Part shown: piece after piece, positions 5,476-14,897 of the stretch
Numbering within the stretch: position 1 is the first letter of the stretch
Layout of the letters: every line of letters starts with the position of its first letter
Virus record (IMG/VR): IMGVR_UViG_3300020045_005532
Span: 1 to 26,260 of that record
DNA from: a virus
Taxonomy: Duplodnaviria; Caudoviricetes
Direction: 5' to 3' (one strand)
Length of the DNA: 26,260 nucleotides
Translations under genes and position numbers: made by a program
The notes under the pieces: model-generated
What the model was told of the DNA's origin: nothing
Seen by the model: only the letters and a program-made list of their open reading frames with translations
Database searches by the model: none

Positions 5476-5503
5476 TTGCGTTTTTGCTGCATCGGTGTAT
5501 TAT
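5476..5503 (+). promoter_or_regulatory. Putative sigma70 promoter reading into the cassette array
   Basis: TTGCGT (5476-5481), 16 bp, TATTAT (5498-5503); shares GTGTTGCGTTT..TGCTGC with the promoter at 710-730. Confidence 0.5.
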
Positions 5504-5515
5504 TTGTTTAAGTGA

Positions 5516-5599
5516 ATGTAACGCCCATGTTCAGCCGCTCCTTTTTACAAACTAGCTGCGCGATATTCTAGCCGCGTCGGCTGTAATGACTGGTTACAT
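5516..5599 (-). repeat. attC-like site 1 (84 bp)
   Basis: Minus strand: R'' ATGTAAC, spacer CAGTC, L'' ATTACAGC (extra A), CGAC...GCG, L' GCTGAAC, spacer ATGGGC, R' GTTACAT. Confidence 0.88.
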
Positions 5600-5630
5600 T
5601 TACATAGCAATTTTATTTAGGAGGTGACTT

Positions 5631-5822
5631 ATGGGTTTTGATTTGAATTTTTTAAATGCGATAGCTGAGATCAAGAAAAAACACGGTAAACCGAAAGAGG
5701 ACGTTCGCAGCGTAATTGAATGCCCAACGCGCAAAGGTAATTTGCGGTATTTAGTTTCAAGCTACAACGGCCACACGCACGGCACCTGCGAAACACCCGG
5801 CTGCTTAAAGTGGATGGAATAG
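5631..5822 (+). CDS. Cassette A ORF, 63 aa putative Zn-binding phage-type protein
   Basis: AGGAGGT RBS; IECP....L.Y..S.YNGH.HG.C.T.GCL.WME motif; stop lies 3 bp before the next attC. Confidence 0.85.
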   Translation: MGFDLNFLNAIAEIKKKHGKPKEDVRSVIECPTRKGNLRYLVSSYNGHTHGTCETPGCLKWME

Positions 5823-5825
5823 TGA

Positions 5826-5909
5826 ATGTAACGTTGAGCTAAAGCGCTGCATTTAAGCAGCGATAAAAACGCAAATTTATAGACAGTCGCTTTGAGTGAC
5901 TGGTTACAT
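5826..5909 (-). repeat. attC-like site 2 (84 bp)
   Basis: Minus strand: ATGTAAC CAGTC ACTCAAAG (extra C) CGACTG...CAGCG CTTTAGC TCAAC GTTACAT. Confidence 0.88.
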
Positions 5910-5929
5910 TTACCGATGGAGGGTTCGCA

Positions 5930-6094
5930 ATGAAAACAAAGTACAGAGCCATGATAGAGCAGAATGGTGGCCAATATTACGGATGGATTACATTCCACGC
6001 CGAAAAATGGGAACGCAAAAACGAATGCACTCTGCTAGTAGATGGTTATGAAATGGAGTTTGACGAACCAATTGATGACCCTGAAGAGTGGTGA
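5930..6094 (+). CDS. Cassette B ORF, 54 aa acidic protein (not in ORF track)
   Basis: GGAGG at 5918-5922; MKTKYRAMIEQNGGQYYGWITFHAEKWERKNECTLLVDGYEMEFDEPIDDPEEW; TGA directly abuts attC 3. Confidence 0.8.
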   Translation: MKTKYRAMIEQNGGQYYGWITFHAEKWERKNECTLLVDGYEMEFDEPIDDPEEW

Positions 6095-6180
6095 ATGTAA
6101 CGTTGAGCACAACGGCGGCTTTTAACTGGTAATTTAAAACTGATATTTACAACCCGTCCCGTTGCTGTGACTGGTTAAAT
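6095..6180 (-). repeat. attC-like site 3 (86 bp)
   Basis: Minus strand: ATTTAAC CAGTC ACAGCAAC (extra G) GGGACGG...CCGCC GTTGTGC TCAAC GTTACAT. Confidence 0.88.
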
Positions 6181-6194
6181 TTAGGAGACACACT

Positions 6195-6482
6195 TTGAAC
6201 AACCAAATTCAAACATGGGCACAAGGGCGATTTGTAGAGCAGCCACACGAAAGCAATTTTACTGATGCGCAAAAGGCGCAAGCTAACGAGCTAGAGAGGT
6301 TTTTGGTTAGACCCGATCCTCTTGATACGGCCATTTGTAGGGCGTACAGCCCGCAAGATGCTGAGTGGATAGCCTCGCGATTAAATTTAGCCTCAAAACT
6401 GGAGCAGCTTACCTACGACTTCGCAATGGGTAAAACTGACGGTGAAGAAATTCGCAGCTTTGTAAGGGCTAGCCTCGACTGA
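6195..6482 (+). CDS. Cassette C ORF, 95 aa hypothetical protein
   Basis: AGGAG RBS then TTG start; TGA directly abuts attC 4. Confidence 0.8.
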   Translation: MNNQIQTWAQGRFVEQPHESNFTDAQKAQANELERFLVRPDPLDTAICRAYSPQDAEWIASRLNLASKLEQLTYDFAMGKTDGEEIRSFVRASLD

Positions 6483-6569
6483 ATTTAACGCCCATGTTCA
6501 CGCGTGCCGTTTAACAAGTAATAAAGAACTAAGGCCTACCCGCATCGCGCGTGTAACGCCTTGTTATGA
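6483..6569 (-). repeat. attC-like site 4 (87 bp)
   Basis: Minus strand: TCATAAC AAGGC GTTACACG (extra A)...CGTGAAC ATGGGC GTTAAAT. Confidence 0.88.
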
Positions 6570-6596
6570 CCAACACAACGTTAGTGAGATAGCGAA

Positions 6597-6749
6597 ATGC
6601 ACAACCAAGATGACAAAAATCACACAATACCAGACGATTACGAAACTTACGACAAGCGATATTTTCAAGGTCGTGAATGTCGGATATACCGCAAGGGTGA
6701 TTACTGGTTTAGCCAGCTTTCTAAACGCTGGATAAAGCTTAGCTACTGA
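6597..6749 (+). CDS. Cassette D ORF, 50 aa protein (not in ORF track)
   Basis: MHNQDDKNHTIPDDYETYDKRYFQGRECRIYRKGDYWFSQLSKRWIKLSY; tandem TGA TAG stops abut attC 5; only a weak GAG RBS. Confidence 0.7.
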   Translation: MHNQDDKNHTIPDDYETYDKRYFQGRECRIYRKGDYWFSQLSKRWIKLSY

Positions 6750-6752
6750 TAG

Positions 6753-6837
6753 TCATAACGTTGAGCACAACGGCGGCTTTTAACGGCCGGAAGAGTGCGA
6801 CACTCTAATTCCGTCCAGTTGCTGTGACTGGTTACAT
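6753..6837 (-). repeat. attC-like site 5 (85 bp)
   Basis: Minus strand: ATGTAAC CAGTC ACAGCAAC (extra G) TGGACGG...CCGCC GTTGTGC TCAAC GTTATGA; outer arms match attC 3. Confidence 0.88.
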
Positions 6838-6860
6838 TTACATAGCGAGGTTAATTAAAA

Positions 6861-7013
6861 ATGACTGCGGAACAATATAAAAGAGATTTTGAAATTTGGT
6901 ATTTTGCGCAATTCGGAAATGGCATTGGGCTTAACTTTGATGATGATGGCTACGAGAACGAAACTGTAAACGCGATGTGGATTGGTTTTTGTGCCGGAAG
7001 AATGACAGCCTAG
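6861..7013 (+). CDS. Cassette E ORF, 50 aa phage-type protein (not in ORF track)
   Basis: GAGGT RBS; MTAEQYKRDFEIWYFAQFGNGIGLNFDDDGYENETVNAMWIGFCAGRMTA has the FE.W...Y....V..MW.G pattern common in small phage proteins; TAG TGA stops at cassette end. Confidence 0.8.
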   Translation: MTAEQYKRDFEIWYFAQFGNGIGLNFDDDGYENETVNAMWIGFCAGRMTA

Positions 7014-7016
7014 TGA

Positions 7017-7035
7017 ATGTAACAGTTTATTCAAC
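7017..7035 (-). other. attI-like simple recombination site
   Basis: Minus strand GTTGAAT-AAACT-GTTACAT (L box, 5 bp, R box) closes the last cassette; no partner arm for an attC hairpin seen in 7036-7200. Confidence 0.6.
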
Positions 7036-7181
7036 TGGTCAGGCCGTAAAACTACGACATTTAGGCGACATGCATCATTGATTTTATTGAAGTTTTTCGC
7101 TGTGTTTGTAGCTTTACTGGGTAGGCCGCTTTTCCACAGAAATTGCACTATATTTGTGCTTTGCACCATATTAACTCAAAC

Positions 7182-7370
7182 TTAGCCAGTCATCGAGCTG
7201 GCTTTTTTTCGTCTGCTATTTCTCATCTTGCACCTAGCCAAACAAAACCTATGCCATTTTGTCTTCGGATGAAAGAATTCTTGGCATGTTTTCTCTGCGC
7301 ATTTGATGACTCCGCCGCCACAATGTGCACACTTATTATCTTTCGTAACGTGCATGAGTAACATCTGCAT
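7182..7370 (-). CDS. Small Cys-rich zinc-finger protein
   Basis: CAHC...C....C...F.P....HRFC..RC..R..R, resembling CGNR-type/phage zinc fingers; GAGAGG upstream of ATG. Confidence 0.65.
   Translation of the reverse strand: MQMLLMHVTKDNKCAHCGGGVIKCAEKTCQEFFHPKTKWHRFCLARCKMRNSRRKKASSMTG
7184..7209 (+). terminator. Rho-independent terminator after the cassette array
   Basis: AGCCAG-TCATCGAG-CTGGCT stem-loop followed by a T run. Confidence 0.65.
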
Positions 7371-7462
7371 TGCCTCTCTAAAAAACCAAACTGTTAATGG
7401 TTATTATCGTTTTGCGAAGAACGTTTTATCCCATTAACAGCTCAGTTCGAGGTAATTATATC

Positions 7463-8191
7463 ATGGCTATGGAAATTAACGATATTGTAGGTGGTCGCGG
7501 TGGTTTTGGGCTTGGTGGCGGCGATAGCGGCTTGGGTCTAATCGCCATTCTTGCAGCAACCGGCGCGCTTGGAAATAACAATCGCCGCAATGACTGTGAT
7601 CGCGATTGTGTTACGCAGGCAGATTTAAATGGCAAGGCTATTGGCGATCTTAAGGGCGAGATTAAAGACGCTCAGGCCGAGCTGCAATTAGGTGCTGCGC
7701 GAGCAGAGGCAAGCATAAATGCAACAACTACTGCAACTGGCAACTCACTGCAAAATGGCCAAACAGCAATACTTTTGCAGTCAGCAAATCAAACCGAGCG
7801 CCTTATGGCTGGAATTGCTGCGGTTGACACCAATGTGGATCGTCAGGCTTGCATGCTTCAGTCAGCGATAAAGGACTCTGAGCGCAACATTCTGGAAGTA
7901 CTCAACCAAAACCGCATCCGCGATCTTGAGCAACAACTAACGGTTTCTCAGTTGCGTGAAGGTGAAGGGCGTCAAATCATTCGCGATAATGATAACGCGC
8001 ACAAACAGGAAATCACCGTAACTCAGATCCAAAACAACAACCAGCTGCAAATTCAAGAGATTCGCCATAGCTTGGCACTTTTGGGTAGCGGCGTGGCTCA
8101 GGTTGCGCGTGCCACTAACAGCCAAGTAGTTGTAGGCTCAACAGGGGTTGCAGGGGTGCAGTCGGCAAACCCAAACAACGTAAACGTGTAG
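7463..8191 (+). CDS. Gly-rich, hydrophobic-N-terminus coiled-coil protein of unknown function
   Basis: GAGGT RBS supports ATG 7463 over track start 7397; GGFGLGGG-hydrophobic-NNN head then long Q/N/A-rich helical region. Confidence 0.85.
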   Translation: MAMEINDIVGGRGGFGLGGGDSGLGLIAILAATGALGNNNRRNDCDRDCVTQADLNGKAIGDLKGEIKDAQAELQLGAARAEASINATTTATGNSLQNGQTAILLQSANQTERLMAGIAAVDTNVDRQACMLQSAIKDSERNILEVLNQNRIRDLEQQLTVSQLREGEGRQIIRDNDNAHKQEITVTQIQNNNQLQIQEIRHSLALLGSGVAQVARATNSQVVVGSTGVAGVQSANPNNVNV

Positions 8192-8201
8192 GGAGTAGAT
8201 C

Positions 8202-8402
8202 ATGCCAGAGCATCATGGGCGGGTTTATTTTACTACGTGGTTTGATAAGTCAGGCGTTTTTCACGTGTCGCCAAAAGATGGCGTTGAGCTTATGGCTATC
8301 AAACATTTGCTTTACGAAATTGGCGAGCACACTATGGAAAAAATGGTTGTGTTTGATACGGATGTTCCTATAGCGCTTGGGAGTGATCCTAAGACTTATT
8401 AG
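8202..8402 (+). CDS. Hypothetical protein, 66 aa
   Basis: GGGAG RBS; followed by terminator. Confidence 0.7.
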   Translation: MPEHHGRVYFTTWFDKSGVFHVSPKDGVELMAIKHLLYEIGEHTMEKMVVFDTDVPIALGSDPKTY

Positions 8403-8409
8403 GGGTCAT

Positions 8410-8439
8410 AAAAAACCCGCCGTAATTGGCGGGTTTTTT
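8410..8439. terminator. Bidirectional rho-independent terminator
   Basis: AAAAAACCCGCC-GTAATT-GGCGGGTTTTTT between convergent genes. Confidence 0.92.
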
Positions 8440-8460
8440 GTATTTACCACATAGTATTTT

Positions 8461-8828: not shown

Positions 8829-10730
8829 TTAAAGTCCTGTCACAGTCAACCCGCCAACAGTCGGCCCCGAAACCGTCAACCCTCTTACAGTCAGTCCGCC
8901 CCCAGAAGCCGGTGGAGCAACACTAAACTGAACAGCCCCACGACTAGTGCCATCGTGCGCAGACGTTGCCAGAAGCGAGTTTGTAGGCGTTACGCAATAC
9001 TTTGCAAAGTCGATAATATCCGCAGTAGTAAAGGCAGGTGTTATTCCAGATTCTTGCTTTCCGGTTGCCGAATTAAAGCCGTTTAATTTTAGCAGCTCTG
9101 CAAAAACCTGAGACGTGGTTGTTAACCCCTTGGTTGCAGCAAACGCTAGAATAATTGAGTTCCCAACAGGGTAGTCGGTCATTGTTGGATTTAGGTCGTC
9201 ATCGCTTCCACCAAATCCAGCATCACCGATTGTTTTTCCGGTTGTTACAACAAATCTATAAAGGTTTGTAGGAAATACAGTGACCAAATTCCAGTAGGTG
9301 TTGTAATCCATCACGTCAATTTGATCGGTTGGAACGATGCCGCCAAGCCCTGCAACAGTTGACAAATTGATGCCAGCAACCTGACCGTCAGATGATAGAT
9401 TGTTTATTACGCCAACAATATTAGATAATATCGTTACAACGCTAGAGCCTGTCATATACCCGTTTGATTCAGTTCTAAAAATCAGGCCGTAGGGGTTGGC
9501 GAAATTAGCGCTAGCCTTCTTGGATAGGTACGTATTGTGCTCAATAGTAACGTTTGCCGTTGAGCTTGCGCCAAGCCTGTTTGCAAAAACGCCTCCTTTG
9601 TCATCTAAAACAATATTCCGCTTAACGCTTATATCGCCAGAAGCGGGCAAAAAATACCAGTCGCTTGCGTTTTCTGCGCCGGATGGGTGAATAATGCCCT
9701 CGATGAAGTTATCTTCTATCGTTTTTACAGACCCATTATCAAAAAGATGGAAGTTGCCCTTTGCTGAATTGTGGCTAACATCCATAATAAATACAGAGCT
9801 TGCAACTGTGTCAGCAAAGAAAAAACAACCTTCTGTCTTTTCACTTTGTCGAAATGCAAGATTGCTTGTTGTGTGTGTTATCGCTAAATTTTTAACTCGA
9901 TCCACTGCAACAGAGTCAATCACGGTGTTTGGGTAACTAGATAGATAGTCAGGCTTAAAGAATCGTATTAATTTTGATGATGTTGGGTCGTTGTGTGTTG
10001 CGGTAAAATTGTCGTATTCGCGCAGTCCTACTGGTGTACCAGCGCCAGATTCGCAGCCAACATAAATCAAAAACGAGCCAGAAACGTCAGCAACATGGGA
10101 ATGACGGTAATCGTTATTTTTCCAAACGAAATCATTATTCAGTCCCGCGAAAGCGGTACTACCGAATAATCCAGCATCATTAAAAGATATATTTTCATAC
10201 CTCATATGATTTCCAGTTGCACTACCTCCGCCCATTTTTATACTGGCCATGTTTTTAATAACAACATGCTTTAAATCTATTAATCCAGTTGAGTAGCCAT
10301 TGCTCGCGCTAGAACAAATTAAAGGTAAAGGCTCACCACTAACATAGTCAGAGCGGGTAAATACATATTGATTTCCTAACGTACCGTGCGCTGTGAATTT
10401 GTTTGGCACATTAGTTGAAGATGTGGCGGTTTGTATCCAGCGATAATTTGATAATCCATCGAAAACTGCTCCAGGATATCCTATGACTTCATTCCACTGA
10501 TTTACCGTTGCATCTGCTGTTAGCTGTAATACTCCGCGATGATGAAATCCTGCGCGATTGCTAAATGACCCGCCTGTGAGTGTGATTGTAGGGTTGAATG
10601 TTACATTAGCAGGTATTGTCATCATATGACTAACAACTACCGTATCGCCCGCAACCGGAATACCATTAGGCGTCCATTTGGTTGGGTCGTTTACGTCCCC
10701 CGCAGCAAAGCTTGCATAAGCCACGCCCAT
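8829..10730 (-). CDS. Large beta-rich protein, probable parallel beta-helix (pectin-lyase-like) with G8-like N-terminus
   Basis: N-terminal GD.NDP..W....P.AGDTV.V motif; repeated I..N-type strands (IEDNFI, VKRNIV, IEHNTY, ILSNIV, MDYNTY); ends RGAVQF plus GLTV repeats. Confidence 0.6.
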   Translation of the reverse strand: MGVAYASFAAGDVNDPTKWTPNGIPVAGDTVVVSHMMTIPANVTFNPTITLTGGSFSNRAGFHHRGVLQLTADATVNQWNEVIGYPGAVFDGLSNYRWIQTATSSTNVPNKFTAHGTLGNQYVFTRSDYVSGEPLPLICSSASNGYSTGLIDLKHVVIKNMASIKMGGGSATGNHMRYENISFNDAGLFGSTAFAGLNNDFVWKNNDYRHSHVADVSGSFLIYVGCESGAGTPVGLREYDNFTATHNDPTSSKLIRFFKPDYLSSYPNTVIDSVAVDRVKNLAITHTTSNLAFRQSEKTEGCFFFADTVASSVFIMDVSHNSAKGNFHLFDNGSVKTIEDNFIEGIIHPSGAENASDWYFLPASGDISVKRNIVLDDKGGVFANRLGASSTANVTIEHNTYLSKKASANFANPYGLIFRTESNGYMTGSSVVTILSNIVGVINNLSSDGQVAGINLSTVAGLGGIVPTDQIDVMDYNTYWNLVTVFPTNLYRFVVTTGKTIGDAGFGGSDDDLNPTMTDYPVGNSIILAFAATKGLTTTSQVFAELLKLNGFNSATGKQESGITPAFTTADIIDFAKYCVTPTNSLLATSAHDGTSRGAVQFSVAPPASGGGLTVRGLTVSGPTVGGLTVTGL

Positions 10731-12361: not shown

Positions 12362-12587
12362 TTATGTTTTCCTGAATCGCTGGCGTTACTGCGTTTATTT
12401 TTGCTACTGATTCTTTGTTGTCGAAGAACAAAACATTAGAAAAAAGCCACATAATAACCAGAACCCATTCACCACTTTGAATATGCCTTGTCATTAATAA
12501 TAACGTTGTCACCACACACCAAAACGAACAATAGAAATATTTTCTACCACCGAAAGCATTGAATAGTGCGTTTTGGAAATCGTTCAT
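12348..12587 (-). CDS. Putative holin
   Basis: 79 aa, GGRK followed by two TM segments, immediately upstream of endolysin. Confidence 0.65.
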   Translation of the reverse strand: MNDFQNALFNAFGGRKYFYCSFWCVVTTLLLMTRHIQSGEWVLVIMWLFSNVLFFDNKESVAKINAVTPAIQENINELK

Positions 12588-12865
12588 AGCAGCAACTTAA
12601 TAACTGATAGTACGGATGATGGCGAAAACTGCGGGAAAAATGTCATCGCAGCAACATAACAAATCGCAATAGTTCCAAGCTTTGATTTAAGAGTGAGGCC
12701 TTTTTTATAGGCGTCCAAGACAGGCTTTAGTGTCTTTTGAAATTCTTCATGGCTGTTGCGTATTTCTCTGATTTCTGATGACAATCTGGTATCAACCTCG
12801 CCAATCAAAGCCGCTGCCCGTATAGCCTTTGACACATCAGAAAAAAACTCACGCTGCTCATTCAT
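12584..12865 (-). CDS. Lysis-region protein with C-terminal TM (holin/antiholin-like)
   Basis: Helical soluble part then hydrophobic tail; start at 12865 (MNEQ) chosen because it overlaps the upstream stop; track start 12916. Confidence 0.6.
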   Translation of the reverse strand: MNEQREFFSDVSKAIRAAALIGEVDTRLSSEIREIRNSHEEFQKTLKPVLDAYKKGLTLKSKLGTIAICYVAAMTFFPQFSPSSVLSVIKLLL

Positions 12866-13103
12866 GCAGTGCTCGGCGGCTCTTCTCTCGTCTGTCGATT
12901 CCTGCATAATTGCCAACCCTTAGCAATGGTTTGAATGTGTCCAGCGTATCACCGCGCGCCGCGCTTTTAAATACATGTATCATAGCGGTGATAAGCGGCA
13001 ATGGCCTACCAACCTCATCTAGCGTGTGCGTCAAAATATCTGCGCTATGCAGTATTTTATCGCAATCGTCGCTAGCAAAACGGCAGCTGTTGCGGCGTTC
13101 CAC
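12858..13103 (-). CDS. Hypothetical protein, 81 aa
   Basis: GGAG RBS before GTG; ERR and YAGIDRR motifs as seen in phage lysis-region proteins; bridges the gap between neighbours. Confidence 0.55.
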   Translation of the reverse strand: MERRNSCRFASDDCDKILHSADILTHTLDEVGRPLPLITAMIHVFKSAARGDTLDTFKPLLRVGNYAGIDRREKSRRALHE

Positions 13104-13348
13104 AATATACGCTCCGAACTCATAAATTCAACGTTTTCATCGGTTAAAGGCATTTGTTTATTGGCCATAAACGCGCACACACGATAGCCAAGAAATAGCG
13201 CCATTGATTCGCTATAGGTGAGATTCGTATCTGCCAAATAGCCGCACAGATAAATCGCCAAAGCAGCCGTATTCGCAGCCAATAGCATACCTAAAAATAA
13301 GCGAACTTTTACAGGCAATAATTCGTATAGGGATTTCAGACGGTTCAT
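13031..13348 (-). CDS. Hypothetical membrane protein
   Basis: 105 aa with hydrophobic segments; ATGA overlap with upstream gene. Confidence 0.6.
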   Translation of the reverse strand: MNRLKSLYELLPVKVRLFLGMLLAANTAALAIYLCGYLADTNLTYSESMALFLGYRVCAFMANKQMPLTDENVEFMSSERILWNAATAAVLLATIAIKYCIAQIF

Positions 13349-13734
13349 AGGGGGACTCCTTGCAGCAACACAGGAATACGGCTCATGTCGTCAAGAACAC
13401 CCACAACACCAAGCGCGGTAGTTGATACCAGCACGCGGTTATCGGCAACATTGACCGCGCGCGCATCAGCCCACTCATCAATAGAAATTTGCAGAACTTC
13501 AAGCCAAGTCCAATCTTCAATACCAGGAAGCCCGCACTCTTCTATCAGCATTTCAGCATTTGGCAGCTCAGATAAATCACCATCAATATTTTTTGCTAAA
13601 TAGCGAAAGCGTTTAGATTCATTTGGTGTGAATAGTGATCGCCATTCGGATTTGTCTATGCCGCTGGTTTTGTGTGTAGGCGACGGGATCGGATTATCCC
13701 AAATAGTGCCATTTGGTGTGTCAATGTATGCCAT
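13345..13734 (-). CDS. Hypothetical acidic protein, possible tail fibre assembly chaperone
   Basis: Position after tail-tip genes; I.K.EWRSLFT..E and ...RI..LL.G pattern. Confidence 0.5.
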   Translation of the reverse strand: MAYIDTPNGTIWDNPIPSPTHKTSGIDKSEWRSLFTPNESKRFRYLAKNIDGDLSELPNAEMLIEECGLPGIEDWTWLEVLQISIDEWADARAVNVADNRVLVSTTALGVVGVLDDMSRIPVLLQGVPL

Positions 13735-13736
13735 GA

Positions 13737-14201
13737 TTAAGCTGCCTGCGTTCTAGCCAAAGAAGTTGTGAATTTGCCAGTTTCGTTTTGATTGCTAGCA
13801 TACTGAACACGAATTGCGCTTGTGTAGACAATCGGCGGAAGCGAAGAGTTATTCCCAGACGAATGGTTTCCGGCCAATACTGCACCGCTATTTATTGTGG
13901 TTATCGCCGCGCTAGTGAAGTCATAAATGCTACCACCGTCCACAGTAACGACTATTCTCAATGTTCGGCTTGTGGTGTCATTTGTGAAAATAGAAAGCTG
14001 GCTTAAATAACCAGCGCTCCCAGTTTCGTTTATAAGGTCAACGAGTGTATTTGCTGTTAATGCGCCAGAAACAGAATTTCTAGCAGTTGCATTTTCGCCC
14101 AAGTTTGTAATTGCTGTATAACCAGCAGTGCTGCATGCGTTATATAAAGCCTTTGTTGCACCAGAACCTCTCTTAACCTGCGTTAACGGTACGTCTGCCA
14201 T
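13737..14201 (-). CDS. Tail-associated beta-rich protein
   Basis: Thr/Ser/Gly-rich, LRIVVTVDG motif, in tail operon. Confidence 0.55.
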   Translation of the reverse strand: MADVPLTQVKRGSGATKALYNACSTAGYTAITNLGENATARNSVSGALTANTLVDLINETGSAGYLSQLSIFTNDTTSRTLRIVVTVDGGSIYDFTSAAITTINSGAVLAGNHSSGNNSSLPPIVYTSAIRVQYASNQNETGKFTTSLARTQAA

Positions 14202-14897
14202 TTAAACCACCTCCAAAATTGAGGCGCTAACCGCCTTTAAATGAACAACTTCACCAGCGCGCAAAGTTATGTTTGTTCCGCTTGAGATCGACCCTGCATC
14301 ACCGCGAATGGTATATGCAGAATTCATAAGCCTAACCGCTTGAGTGCTGGCTGGGCTATTGCTAAGCACAATAAAATCATTTGTTGCGAGTGTTGGTAAT
14401 GACATATCAGCCGCGGCAGAAGTCGCTATGATTGTGCTTTGAGAATTTGGTATTAGGGTTGCGCTTGCAGTGTATGGGGTAAGCCATCGAGTGCCATTTG
14501 CAAAAGCCCAATCGGTATTTGAAACCCCGGGCTCGCTAGATGCTACGTTTGCAAGATTATTTAGCAGAGACCAATACGCGCCATTATGTAATACTGTTGC
14601 CGGTTTATTTAGTGCACCGGTTAATCCTGACCACAAACCCTTAAAATCTGACAAGTTTGCAGCCGCATCAGCACTTAATGCTGCTGCGGTTGCGCTGTTT
14701 TCGGCAGACACAACAAGGCTGGCAATCCACGTAATAGCGCTGCCGGCATAGGTCACAACATCCTGCAAATAGGCTTTAAACGGCGCGAAATAATCCAGAA
14801 ACGTAAACATCTTGCCAACAAATATGTCTTGGCCTTCTGTTCTGTCTGGCGTTGCCGGTACGCTGGCAATCGGTGTGGGTGGCGTAGGTGCTGGCAT
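14202..14897 (-). CDS. Short tail fibre/tail-tip protein
   Basis: Pro-rich start, helical Ala-rich stalk, FKGLWS.LTGAL..PATV.HNG..W.LL motif, C-terminal beta domain. Confidence 0.65.
   Translation of the reverse strand: MPAPTPPTPIASVPATPDRTEGQDIFVGKMFTFLDYFAPFKAYLQDVVTYAGSAITWIASLVVSAENSATAAALSADAAANLSDFKGLWSGLTGALNKPATVLHNGAYWSLLNNLANVASSEPGVSNTDWAFANGTRWLTPYTASATLIPNSQSTIIATSAAADMSLPTLATNDFIVLSNSPASTQAVRLMNSAYTIRGDAGSISSGTNITLRAGEVVHLKAVSASILEVV

Follow-up and report, generated by a model that had tools for sequence, protein, structure and literature searches.

Are the sites which separate five small genes of this phage plain intergenic repeats, or are they the recombination sites of an integron, and which enzyme would then move cassettes whose genes all point the unexpected way? 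The window, i.e., the whole stretch of 26,260 bases that was analysed, is the full viral contig record and is siphovirus-like. The minus strand carries major head protein, connectors, tail tube, a tape measure protein of 1626 aa and lysis genes. The plus strand carries small early-type genes, and the five ORFs in question (50-95 aa) extend this early run. Gene annotation and family searches found no integrase in the 26-kb window. A search of the window against Rfam gave no match, and a blastn comparison of the array with 50,697 phage records yielded four short matches at chance level. Pfam and PHROG gave no match for a 633-aa protein of the tail region and for several small ORFs at 8832-10730 and 12587-14897; the 633-aa protein has relatives at 24-25% in two other array-bearing phages.

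The attC site is described as a set of R''-L''/L'-R' boxes with conserved AAC and GTT, unpaired spacers of 5-6 nt and a length of 57-141 bp (PMC5027507). All five sites of the window have these boxes, spacers of 5 nt and 5-6 nt, and lengths of 84-87 bp:

5516..5599, minus strand: attC 1, 84 bp; top strand is minus, the recombinogenic bottom strand is plus
5826..5909, minus strand: attC 2, 84 bp; bottom-strand bulges G16 and T23 with a 6-bp stem between them; same type present in the host-type array L065
6095..6180, minus strand: attC 3, 86 bp
6483..6569, minus strand: attC 4, 87 bp; the second bulge has 3 nt
6753..6837, minus strand: attC 5, 85 bp; three bulges

The cytosines of the left AAC are at 5522, 5832, 6101, 6489, 6759 and 7023, the guanines of the right GTT at 5593, 5903, 6174, 6563 and 6831. 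Together with the absence of intI from the 26 kb, the five sites correspond to the definition of a CALIN. Free-energy folding was tried and set aside, since for most sites its best structure was something other than the attC hairpin; constrained folding was used instead. The latter predicts folding into the recombinogenic form at values from 0.004 to 0.6, higher in the circle than in the array for units 3-5.

As to the polarity of the sites, extrahelical bases near positions 16 and 23-25 are restricted in all five to one arm, the one nearest the right end. In detail, a T is found at 23 or 24 in four of five sites, site 4 has a 3-nt bulge, and base 16 is a G in one site only; across the attC family the first bulge is a G in just 34 of 120 sites. 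The opposite polarity scores equally well in a single one of these 120. The bulged arm identifies the plus strand as the bottom strand, and hence every ORF in the window is inverted, with its attC in front. A second line of evidence comes from attC bodies which are at least 80% alike in different contigs. Of 273 such pairs, 127 have the right box in common (background 18%) and 30 the left one (background 13%). The right box is thus coupled to the body and the left box is not, which locates the crossover at the left end. The attC polarity is set by the bulges, by the linkage of the bodies and by the end of the array, and it is the polarity which the earlier note had proposed.

The cassettes and their genes are as follows; the unit lengths are 310, 269, 388, 270 and 264 bp for units 1-5.

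5522..5831, minus strand: cassette unit 1, comprising attC 1 and the inverted ORF1; oldest position
5631..5822, plus strand: ORF1, 63 aa, PHROG 31210 (unknown function), strong ribosome-binding site
5930..6094, plus strand: ORF2, 54 aa, without family or relative; unit 2 is 5832-6100
6195..6482, plus strand: ORF3, 95 aa, TTG start; unit 3 is 6101-6488
6597..6749, plus strand: ORF4, 50 aa, without family; unit 4 is 6489-6758
6861..7013, plus strand: ORF5, 50 aa; unit 5 is 6759-7022

The typical layout, an ORF on the top strand with the attC at its 3' side, is violated by all five units. Each ORF starts 14-32 nt past an attC and stops about 10 nt or less before the next AA/C, and most of the five are preceded by a clear ribosome-binding motif.

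That these units are integron-type cassettes had been argued from the ends of the sites. The boxes, positions and unit lengths reported in the earlier note are all present in the sequence. The two outer boxes within one site differ at 1, 3 and 3 of 7 positions in sites 3, 4 and 5, respectively, and the right end of a site is said to be the reverse complement of the left end of the next one, e.g., GTTAAAT of site 3 and ATTTAAC of site 4, or GTTACAT of site 5 and ATGTAAC at 7017. Indeed, all five ORFs are flanked in this manner. The match extends over 8 nt in all five and over 10/11 nt with one G.T pair in four. When the units are circularised in silico at AA/C, the R box is fully paired in five of five; in the array it is chimeric. 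Three of the five matches involve the commonest box, so that the statistic is modest when taken for the window only (p = 0.033, 24 of 720 assignments). The 26 contigs of the attC family have 99 units, of which 80 show the match across the ORF and 10 within the site; 2000 shuffles gave a mean of 15.6 and a maximum of 28. This family-wide result is decisive. The units are cassettes rather than plain intergenic repeats, and their boundaries at AA/C were drawn correctly.

Two further readings of the matching ends do not carry as far. It had been held that the ends fix the attC orientation independently of the bulges. The matching is symmetric, however: circles closed at G/TT on the plus strand restore the R box equally well in four of four testable units. 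Likewise, the ends were taken to record the insertion of each unit as a circle. They do record that each ORF once was in a cassette; to view each present junction as a product of IntI overstates the case. Circle junctions, which the note proposed to search for, were not found among the contigs of four of the nine listed runs, and contigs drop rare forms. The contigs of these runs contain attC sites of relatives and single units ending at AAC; a piece corresponding to 6583-6760, which covers ORF4, was found in run X7.

The array is no singular case. A two-arm pattern located 17 loci in viral contigs, 10 in genomes and 30 among the metagenome matches listed. A profile built from structure-defined attC sites delimits arrays of 1-14 sites, mostly of 83-89 bp, in 26 sequences including the window. 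One pattern match (L002/G015) is without attC and was discarded. The longest ORF is inverted in 96 of 99 family units, a count which leaves out the G012 array (its piece L126 missed the array) and includes both of the near-duplicates L121 and L123. In the same 99 units, ribosome-binding motifs precede a plus start in 68 and a minus start in 5 instances. The backbones are diverse; few family contigs have structural genes in common with the window. Some family cassette ORFs start in or before the attC and are translated through the hairpin (L138 1608-1982, L045 4662-5036); the five ORFs of the window do not. Cassettes at L112 6357-6884 and L114 3470-3940 look by motif like DNA methyltransferases, as has been reported for other phage CALINs.

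What stands at the head of this array? The half site at 7017-7023 is, as the earlier note missed, the junction with an attI-type site which matches the attI of Cellvibrio integrons:

7023..7135, minus strand: attI-type site; crossover between 7023 and 7022; core 7020-7034 identical to attI of the genus Cellvibrio; about 110 bp conserved among phages

Across phage contigs this conservation begins exactly at AA/C, and the first cassettes differ. Of 25 other arrays, 15 have an attI-type half site no more than 1.5 kb past their last attC (0.06 per 1.5 kb by chance, with a pattern drawn from the data), and 13 of these 15 match the last box as well. The remaining arrays comprise three with a variant attI, six with fewer than 900 bases left and one with none. 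Unexpectedly, the search for this attI also matched the region upstream of intI, at the junction with the first cassette, in a genome titled Cellvibrio sp. (L050, L052). We then have 31 intI loci of the genus, i.e., 30 of 48 matches plus L050. The attI pattern is located 213-336 bp upstream of intI in 12 of the 31 and is absent from 19; the exact 15-mer is present in 4. Of 151 genomes belonging to the host family, 17 contain the 15-nt core and 2 a reversed control, and 5 of 25 loci with the 15-mer have intI within 1.5 kb. The array is headed by an attI-type site, to judge from where it lies, from its conservation and from its identity with the site that precedes host intI. In several genomes of the host family the core is present in many copies, 11 in G160 and 4 each in G162 and G166 (L085-L109), with a different sequence after each and mostly without intI within 1.5 kb; these may be solo docking sites. 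The contigs L032, L034 and L064 have in common a sequence of about 60 nt left of the first attC, which may be the other half of an original, empty phage attI.

The host is likely Cellvibrio. This assignment draws on the attI identity, on contigs in bins, which may be mis-binned, and on one capsid relative: a protein 57% identical to the capsid protein of the window is present in only 1 of 64 genomes of the genus. IntI scores above the family cut-off in 41 of the 64, and phage-type arrays are present in three. An assignment by CRISPR spacer was considered and rejected; the two 31-bp matches represent a terminator and are not spacers.

The cassettes have been mobile. The earlier note proposed to look for the same units beside different neighbours, and two of the five are so found: ORF1 recurs at 86-87% amino acid identity in L118 and L119 and a homologue of ORF5 (71%) in L057, with other neighbours on both sides in each instance. 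These homologies stop at the AAC on the 3' side of the gene. L119 and the window are about 80% identical in the left flank and have only one cassette in common. Aurantimonas phage AmM-1 has a relative of ORF3 (53% identity) as an ordinary gene with no attC, which fits, without proving, a birth of cassettes from phage genes. Relatives with context were not found in viral contigs for ORF2, ORF3 and ORF4, nor in named phages for ORF1 and ORF2.

To which ORF, then, does an attC belong? The linkage with the ORF on its right, as postulated, is borne out by an array of a different kind. L065 has attC sites of 131-133 bp, the type of Cellvibrio integrons. Eight of its nine units are standard. The remaining one is phage-type: its attC has 84 bp and resembles site 2, the ORF to the right of this attC is inverted and encodes 79 aa, and the ends of the unit are those of units 1, 2 and 5. 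This unit confirms the unit boundaries. Homologous ORF pairs contribute little: in 12 of 19 the attC is closer on the left and in 7 on the right (p = 0.11), and, owing to missed sites, many of these pairs extend over two or more cassettes. Further, the attC body left of a given ORF often differs, and ORF1 is accompanied by three different bodies. Bodies were thus swapped, or genes captured more than once. The reverse of L065 is G171, in which the phage attI is situated upstream of the same gene as in L138 and L026. It is followed by three attC of host type (132-141 bp), with standard ORFs where readable, and by the start of a phage-type unit at the contig end. This continuation, cut short by the contig end, would favour capture over integration of a prophage through attI. 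Cassettes appear to have been traded in both directions between phage and host-type arrays, as is visible in L065 and G171.

Expression of the array is probably organised from its far end. Two elements are pertinent:

5476..5503, plus strand: candidate promoter, inferred and weak; -35-like 3/6, 16 nt, -10-like 5/6; at the distal array end facing the inverted ORFs; from direct reading, below the promoter-scan threshold
7184..7211, plus strand: intrinsic-terminator-like hairpin with T run, just beyond attI; folding z -3.7

L119, a syntenic relative, retains the candidate promoter as far as its homology with the window extends. The hairpin would terminate the cassette transcript. A scan for Pc gave one 9/12 match at 7174-7147 on the minus strand, and seven matches compared with 7.2 by chance. 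Left of attC 1, at 5504-5521, there is an 11-nt end which is the same as in units 1, 2 and 5, yet no cassette is behind it. The distal array end seems eroded by deletion beside the candidate promoter, since in L119 the divergence begins here too and the first attC is halved. Between attI and a terminator at 8408-8440, in the usual place of intI, two plus-strand ORFs are located (7397-8402). They encode a glycine-rich protein of 240-264 aa with a coiled-coil look and one of 66 aa, are without family match, and are missing at this position in L119.

All this leads us to propose, with a probability of roughly 80%, that the window carries a phage-borne integron platform: an attI-type site at 7023 and five attC cassettes with inverted genes which were likely excised as circles and inserted at AA/C by the IntI of the likely Cellvibrio host. 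During infection or lysogeny host IntI would fold and cut the plus-strand hairpins; units would leave as circles and be inserted at AA/C, newcomers entering beside attI. The cassette of ORF5, which adjoins attI, is then likely the newest. Early transcription of the phage would enter at the far (5522) end and stop at the terminator 7184-7211. With transcription from the far end the newest cassette would be the last to be transcribed, the reverse of a bacterial integron. By virtue of the inversion, phage cassettes would be antisense to the cassette promoter of the host, and captured host cassettes antisense to phage transcription.

The enzyme deserves scrutiny. A recombinase encoded by the phage itself, IntI-like or short and Xer-like, might run the array from outside the 26 kb; the phage record is partial, the window being a 26-kb part of a genome which may have an integrase elsewhere, and the related array G213:C453 adjoins a DUF4224 gene and the apparent start of an ordinary prophage integrase cut by the contig end. 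Against this, PF00589 has no match in 15 plus 5 viral records, mostly fragments, among them three with arrays and a completeness of at least 90%. Nor did the window or the compared contigs give any match below E 0.1 to a profile made from nine host IntI and Xer-type proteins. In the window neither the array nor the attI-like end has a tyrosine recombinase beside it, and the attI core agrees with that of host IntI loci. We consider a phage enzyme quite improbable. The lack of a tyrosine recombinase in the 20 viral records points to host IntI, which likely acts in trans on the phage array. Homologous recombination is a further candidate. The units could be former integron cassettes which are now shuffled in phages mainly by recombination between attC bodies, driven by phage single-strand annealing proteins; the hairpins would then be relics or RNA elements. 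The matched boxes of each ORF would likewise be preserved if the exchange took place within the bodies, the same ORF is found with different bodies, and we take an ORF adjoining the array in L045 to be Sak/Rad52-like. Yet the coupling of the right box and the background-level sharing of the left one are what a fixed crossover predicts, first cassettes switch exactly at AA/C of a conserved attI, and the exchange with a host attC of 131 bp and different body requires no long homology. As the main mechanism homologous recombination is unlikely; as a second route by which bodies are swapped it may still operate.

Could the array simply consist of ordinary host cassettes put in backwards, or of a captured fragment of a host integron? 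Recombination of the top strand is reported to yield insertion in the opposite orientation (Nivina et al. 2016, PMC5027507), and prophages with integron fragments are known (PMC9892861). As in our arrays, a gene inserted that way faces attI and is unreadable from Pc. But in the cases described by Nivina et al. (2016; PMC5027507) the whole cassette including its attC flips, as a rare error, whereas the phage arrays combine normal attC with an inverted gene in almost every unit: the attC polarity is correct relative to attI and the inversion is limited to the ORF. Host arrays have standard ORFs (8 of 9 units each in L065 and L124) and sites of 113-133 bp, as opposed to the 83-89 bp and the phage-like genes of the phage family, and a single phage cassette protein gave a short match (21 aa) among the 31 host loci. 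We regard this explanation as largely refuted and hardly credible.

How does the platform relate to known systems? A sedentary chromosomal integron has intI, attI, Pc and attC cassettes (PMC4889954). The phage array resembles the chromosomal integrons of Cellvibrio (L050, L124, L144-L173) in attI core, crossover, attC architecture, end-matching and two-way cassette exchange. It differs from them by the lack of intI in the DNA analysed, by bottom-strand ORFs with the attC at the 5' side, by homogeneous attC of 83-89 bp instead of 113-133 bp, by its small phage genes and by an expression predicted from the distal end. The window works like an integron and fits a CALIN; it is not a complete integron. 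Arrays of attC in phage genomes without intI have been described, and IntI1 recombined five of six phage attC tested (Qi 2023, PMC9892861). In one cryptic Shewanella prophage the CALIN has a host-type attI at its head, and attI is reported only from integrons captured by prophages (PMC9892861). The arrays of virulent phages are called typical. Neither a systematic inversion of the ORFs nor a conserved attI of phages is discussed in the available text of that paper, and the same holds for an attC family specific to phages and for exchange with host arrays (PMC9892861).

In our reanalysis of the published arrays TJE1 is standard, and three GenBank-annotated genes between four sites of PH101 oppose the attC polarity. 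The inversion is present in this one published example and is not remarked upon in the text available (PMC9892861). Two units of the PH101 CALIN (NC_029094 75919-77987, L185) also have a plus-strand ORF start behind R'. In the literature searched, which mostly leaves subscription journals uncovered, we came across no account of a phage attI whose cassettes are systematically reversed. While phage attC clusters are already published (Qi 2023), the attI and the systematic inversion are, as far as this literature goes, the new part. In practical terms, tools which assume a gene followed by its attC will assign phage cassettes to the wrong site.

Tentatively, one can go a step further. Cellvibrio phages might own a cassette pool in which ordinary phage genes are joined to a phage-specific 84-bp attC, the gene built in backwards, and docked by host IntI at a copied host attI, with the inversion serving as a firewall. 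We consider this possible, though somewhat doubtful. Anti-phage systems are stored in chromosomal integrons (bioRxiv 10.1101/2024.07.02.601686). If the firewall reading is true, host defence cassettes caught by the phage would be silent there, and phage genes would be silent in the host array. The origin of new cassettes is stated as unknown (PMC4889954); the proposed pool would represent a natural, repeated birth of cassettes, the unexplained step of integron biology. A candidate host genus, short defined sites and a standard assay make the borrowing of the enzyme, the choice of strand, silencing by orientation and cassette birth testable. A phage which has a docking site of its host and a pool of reversed cassettes would exploit the adaptive machine of the host for its own accessory genes.
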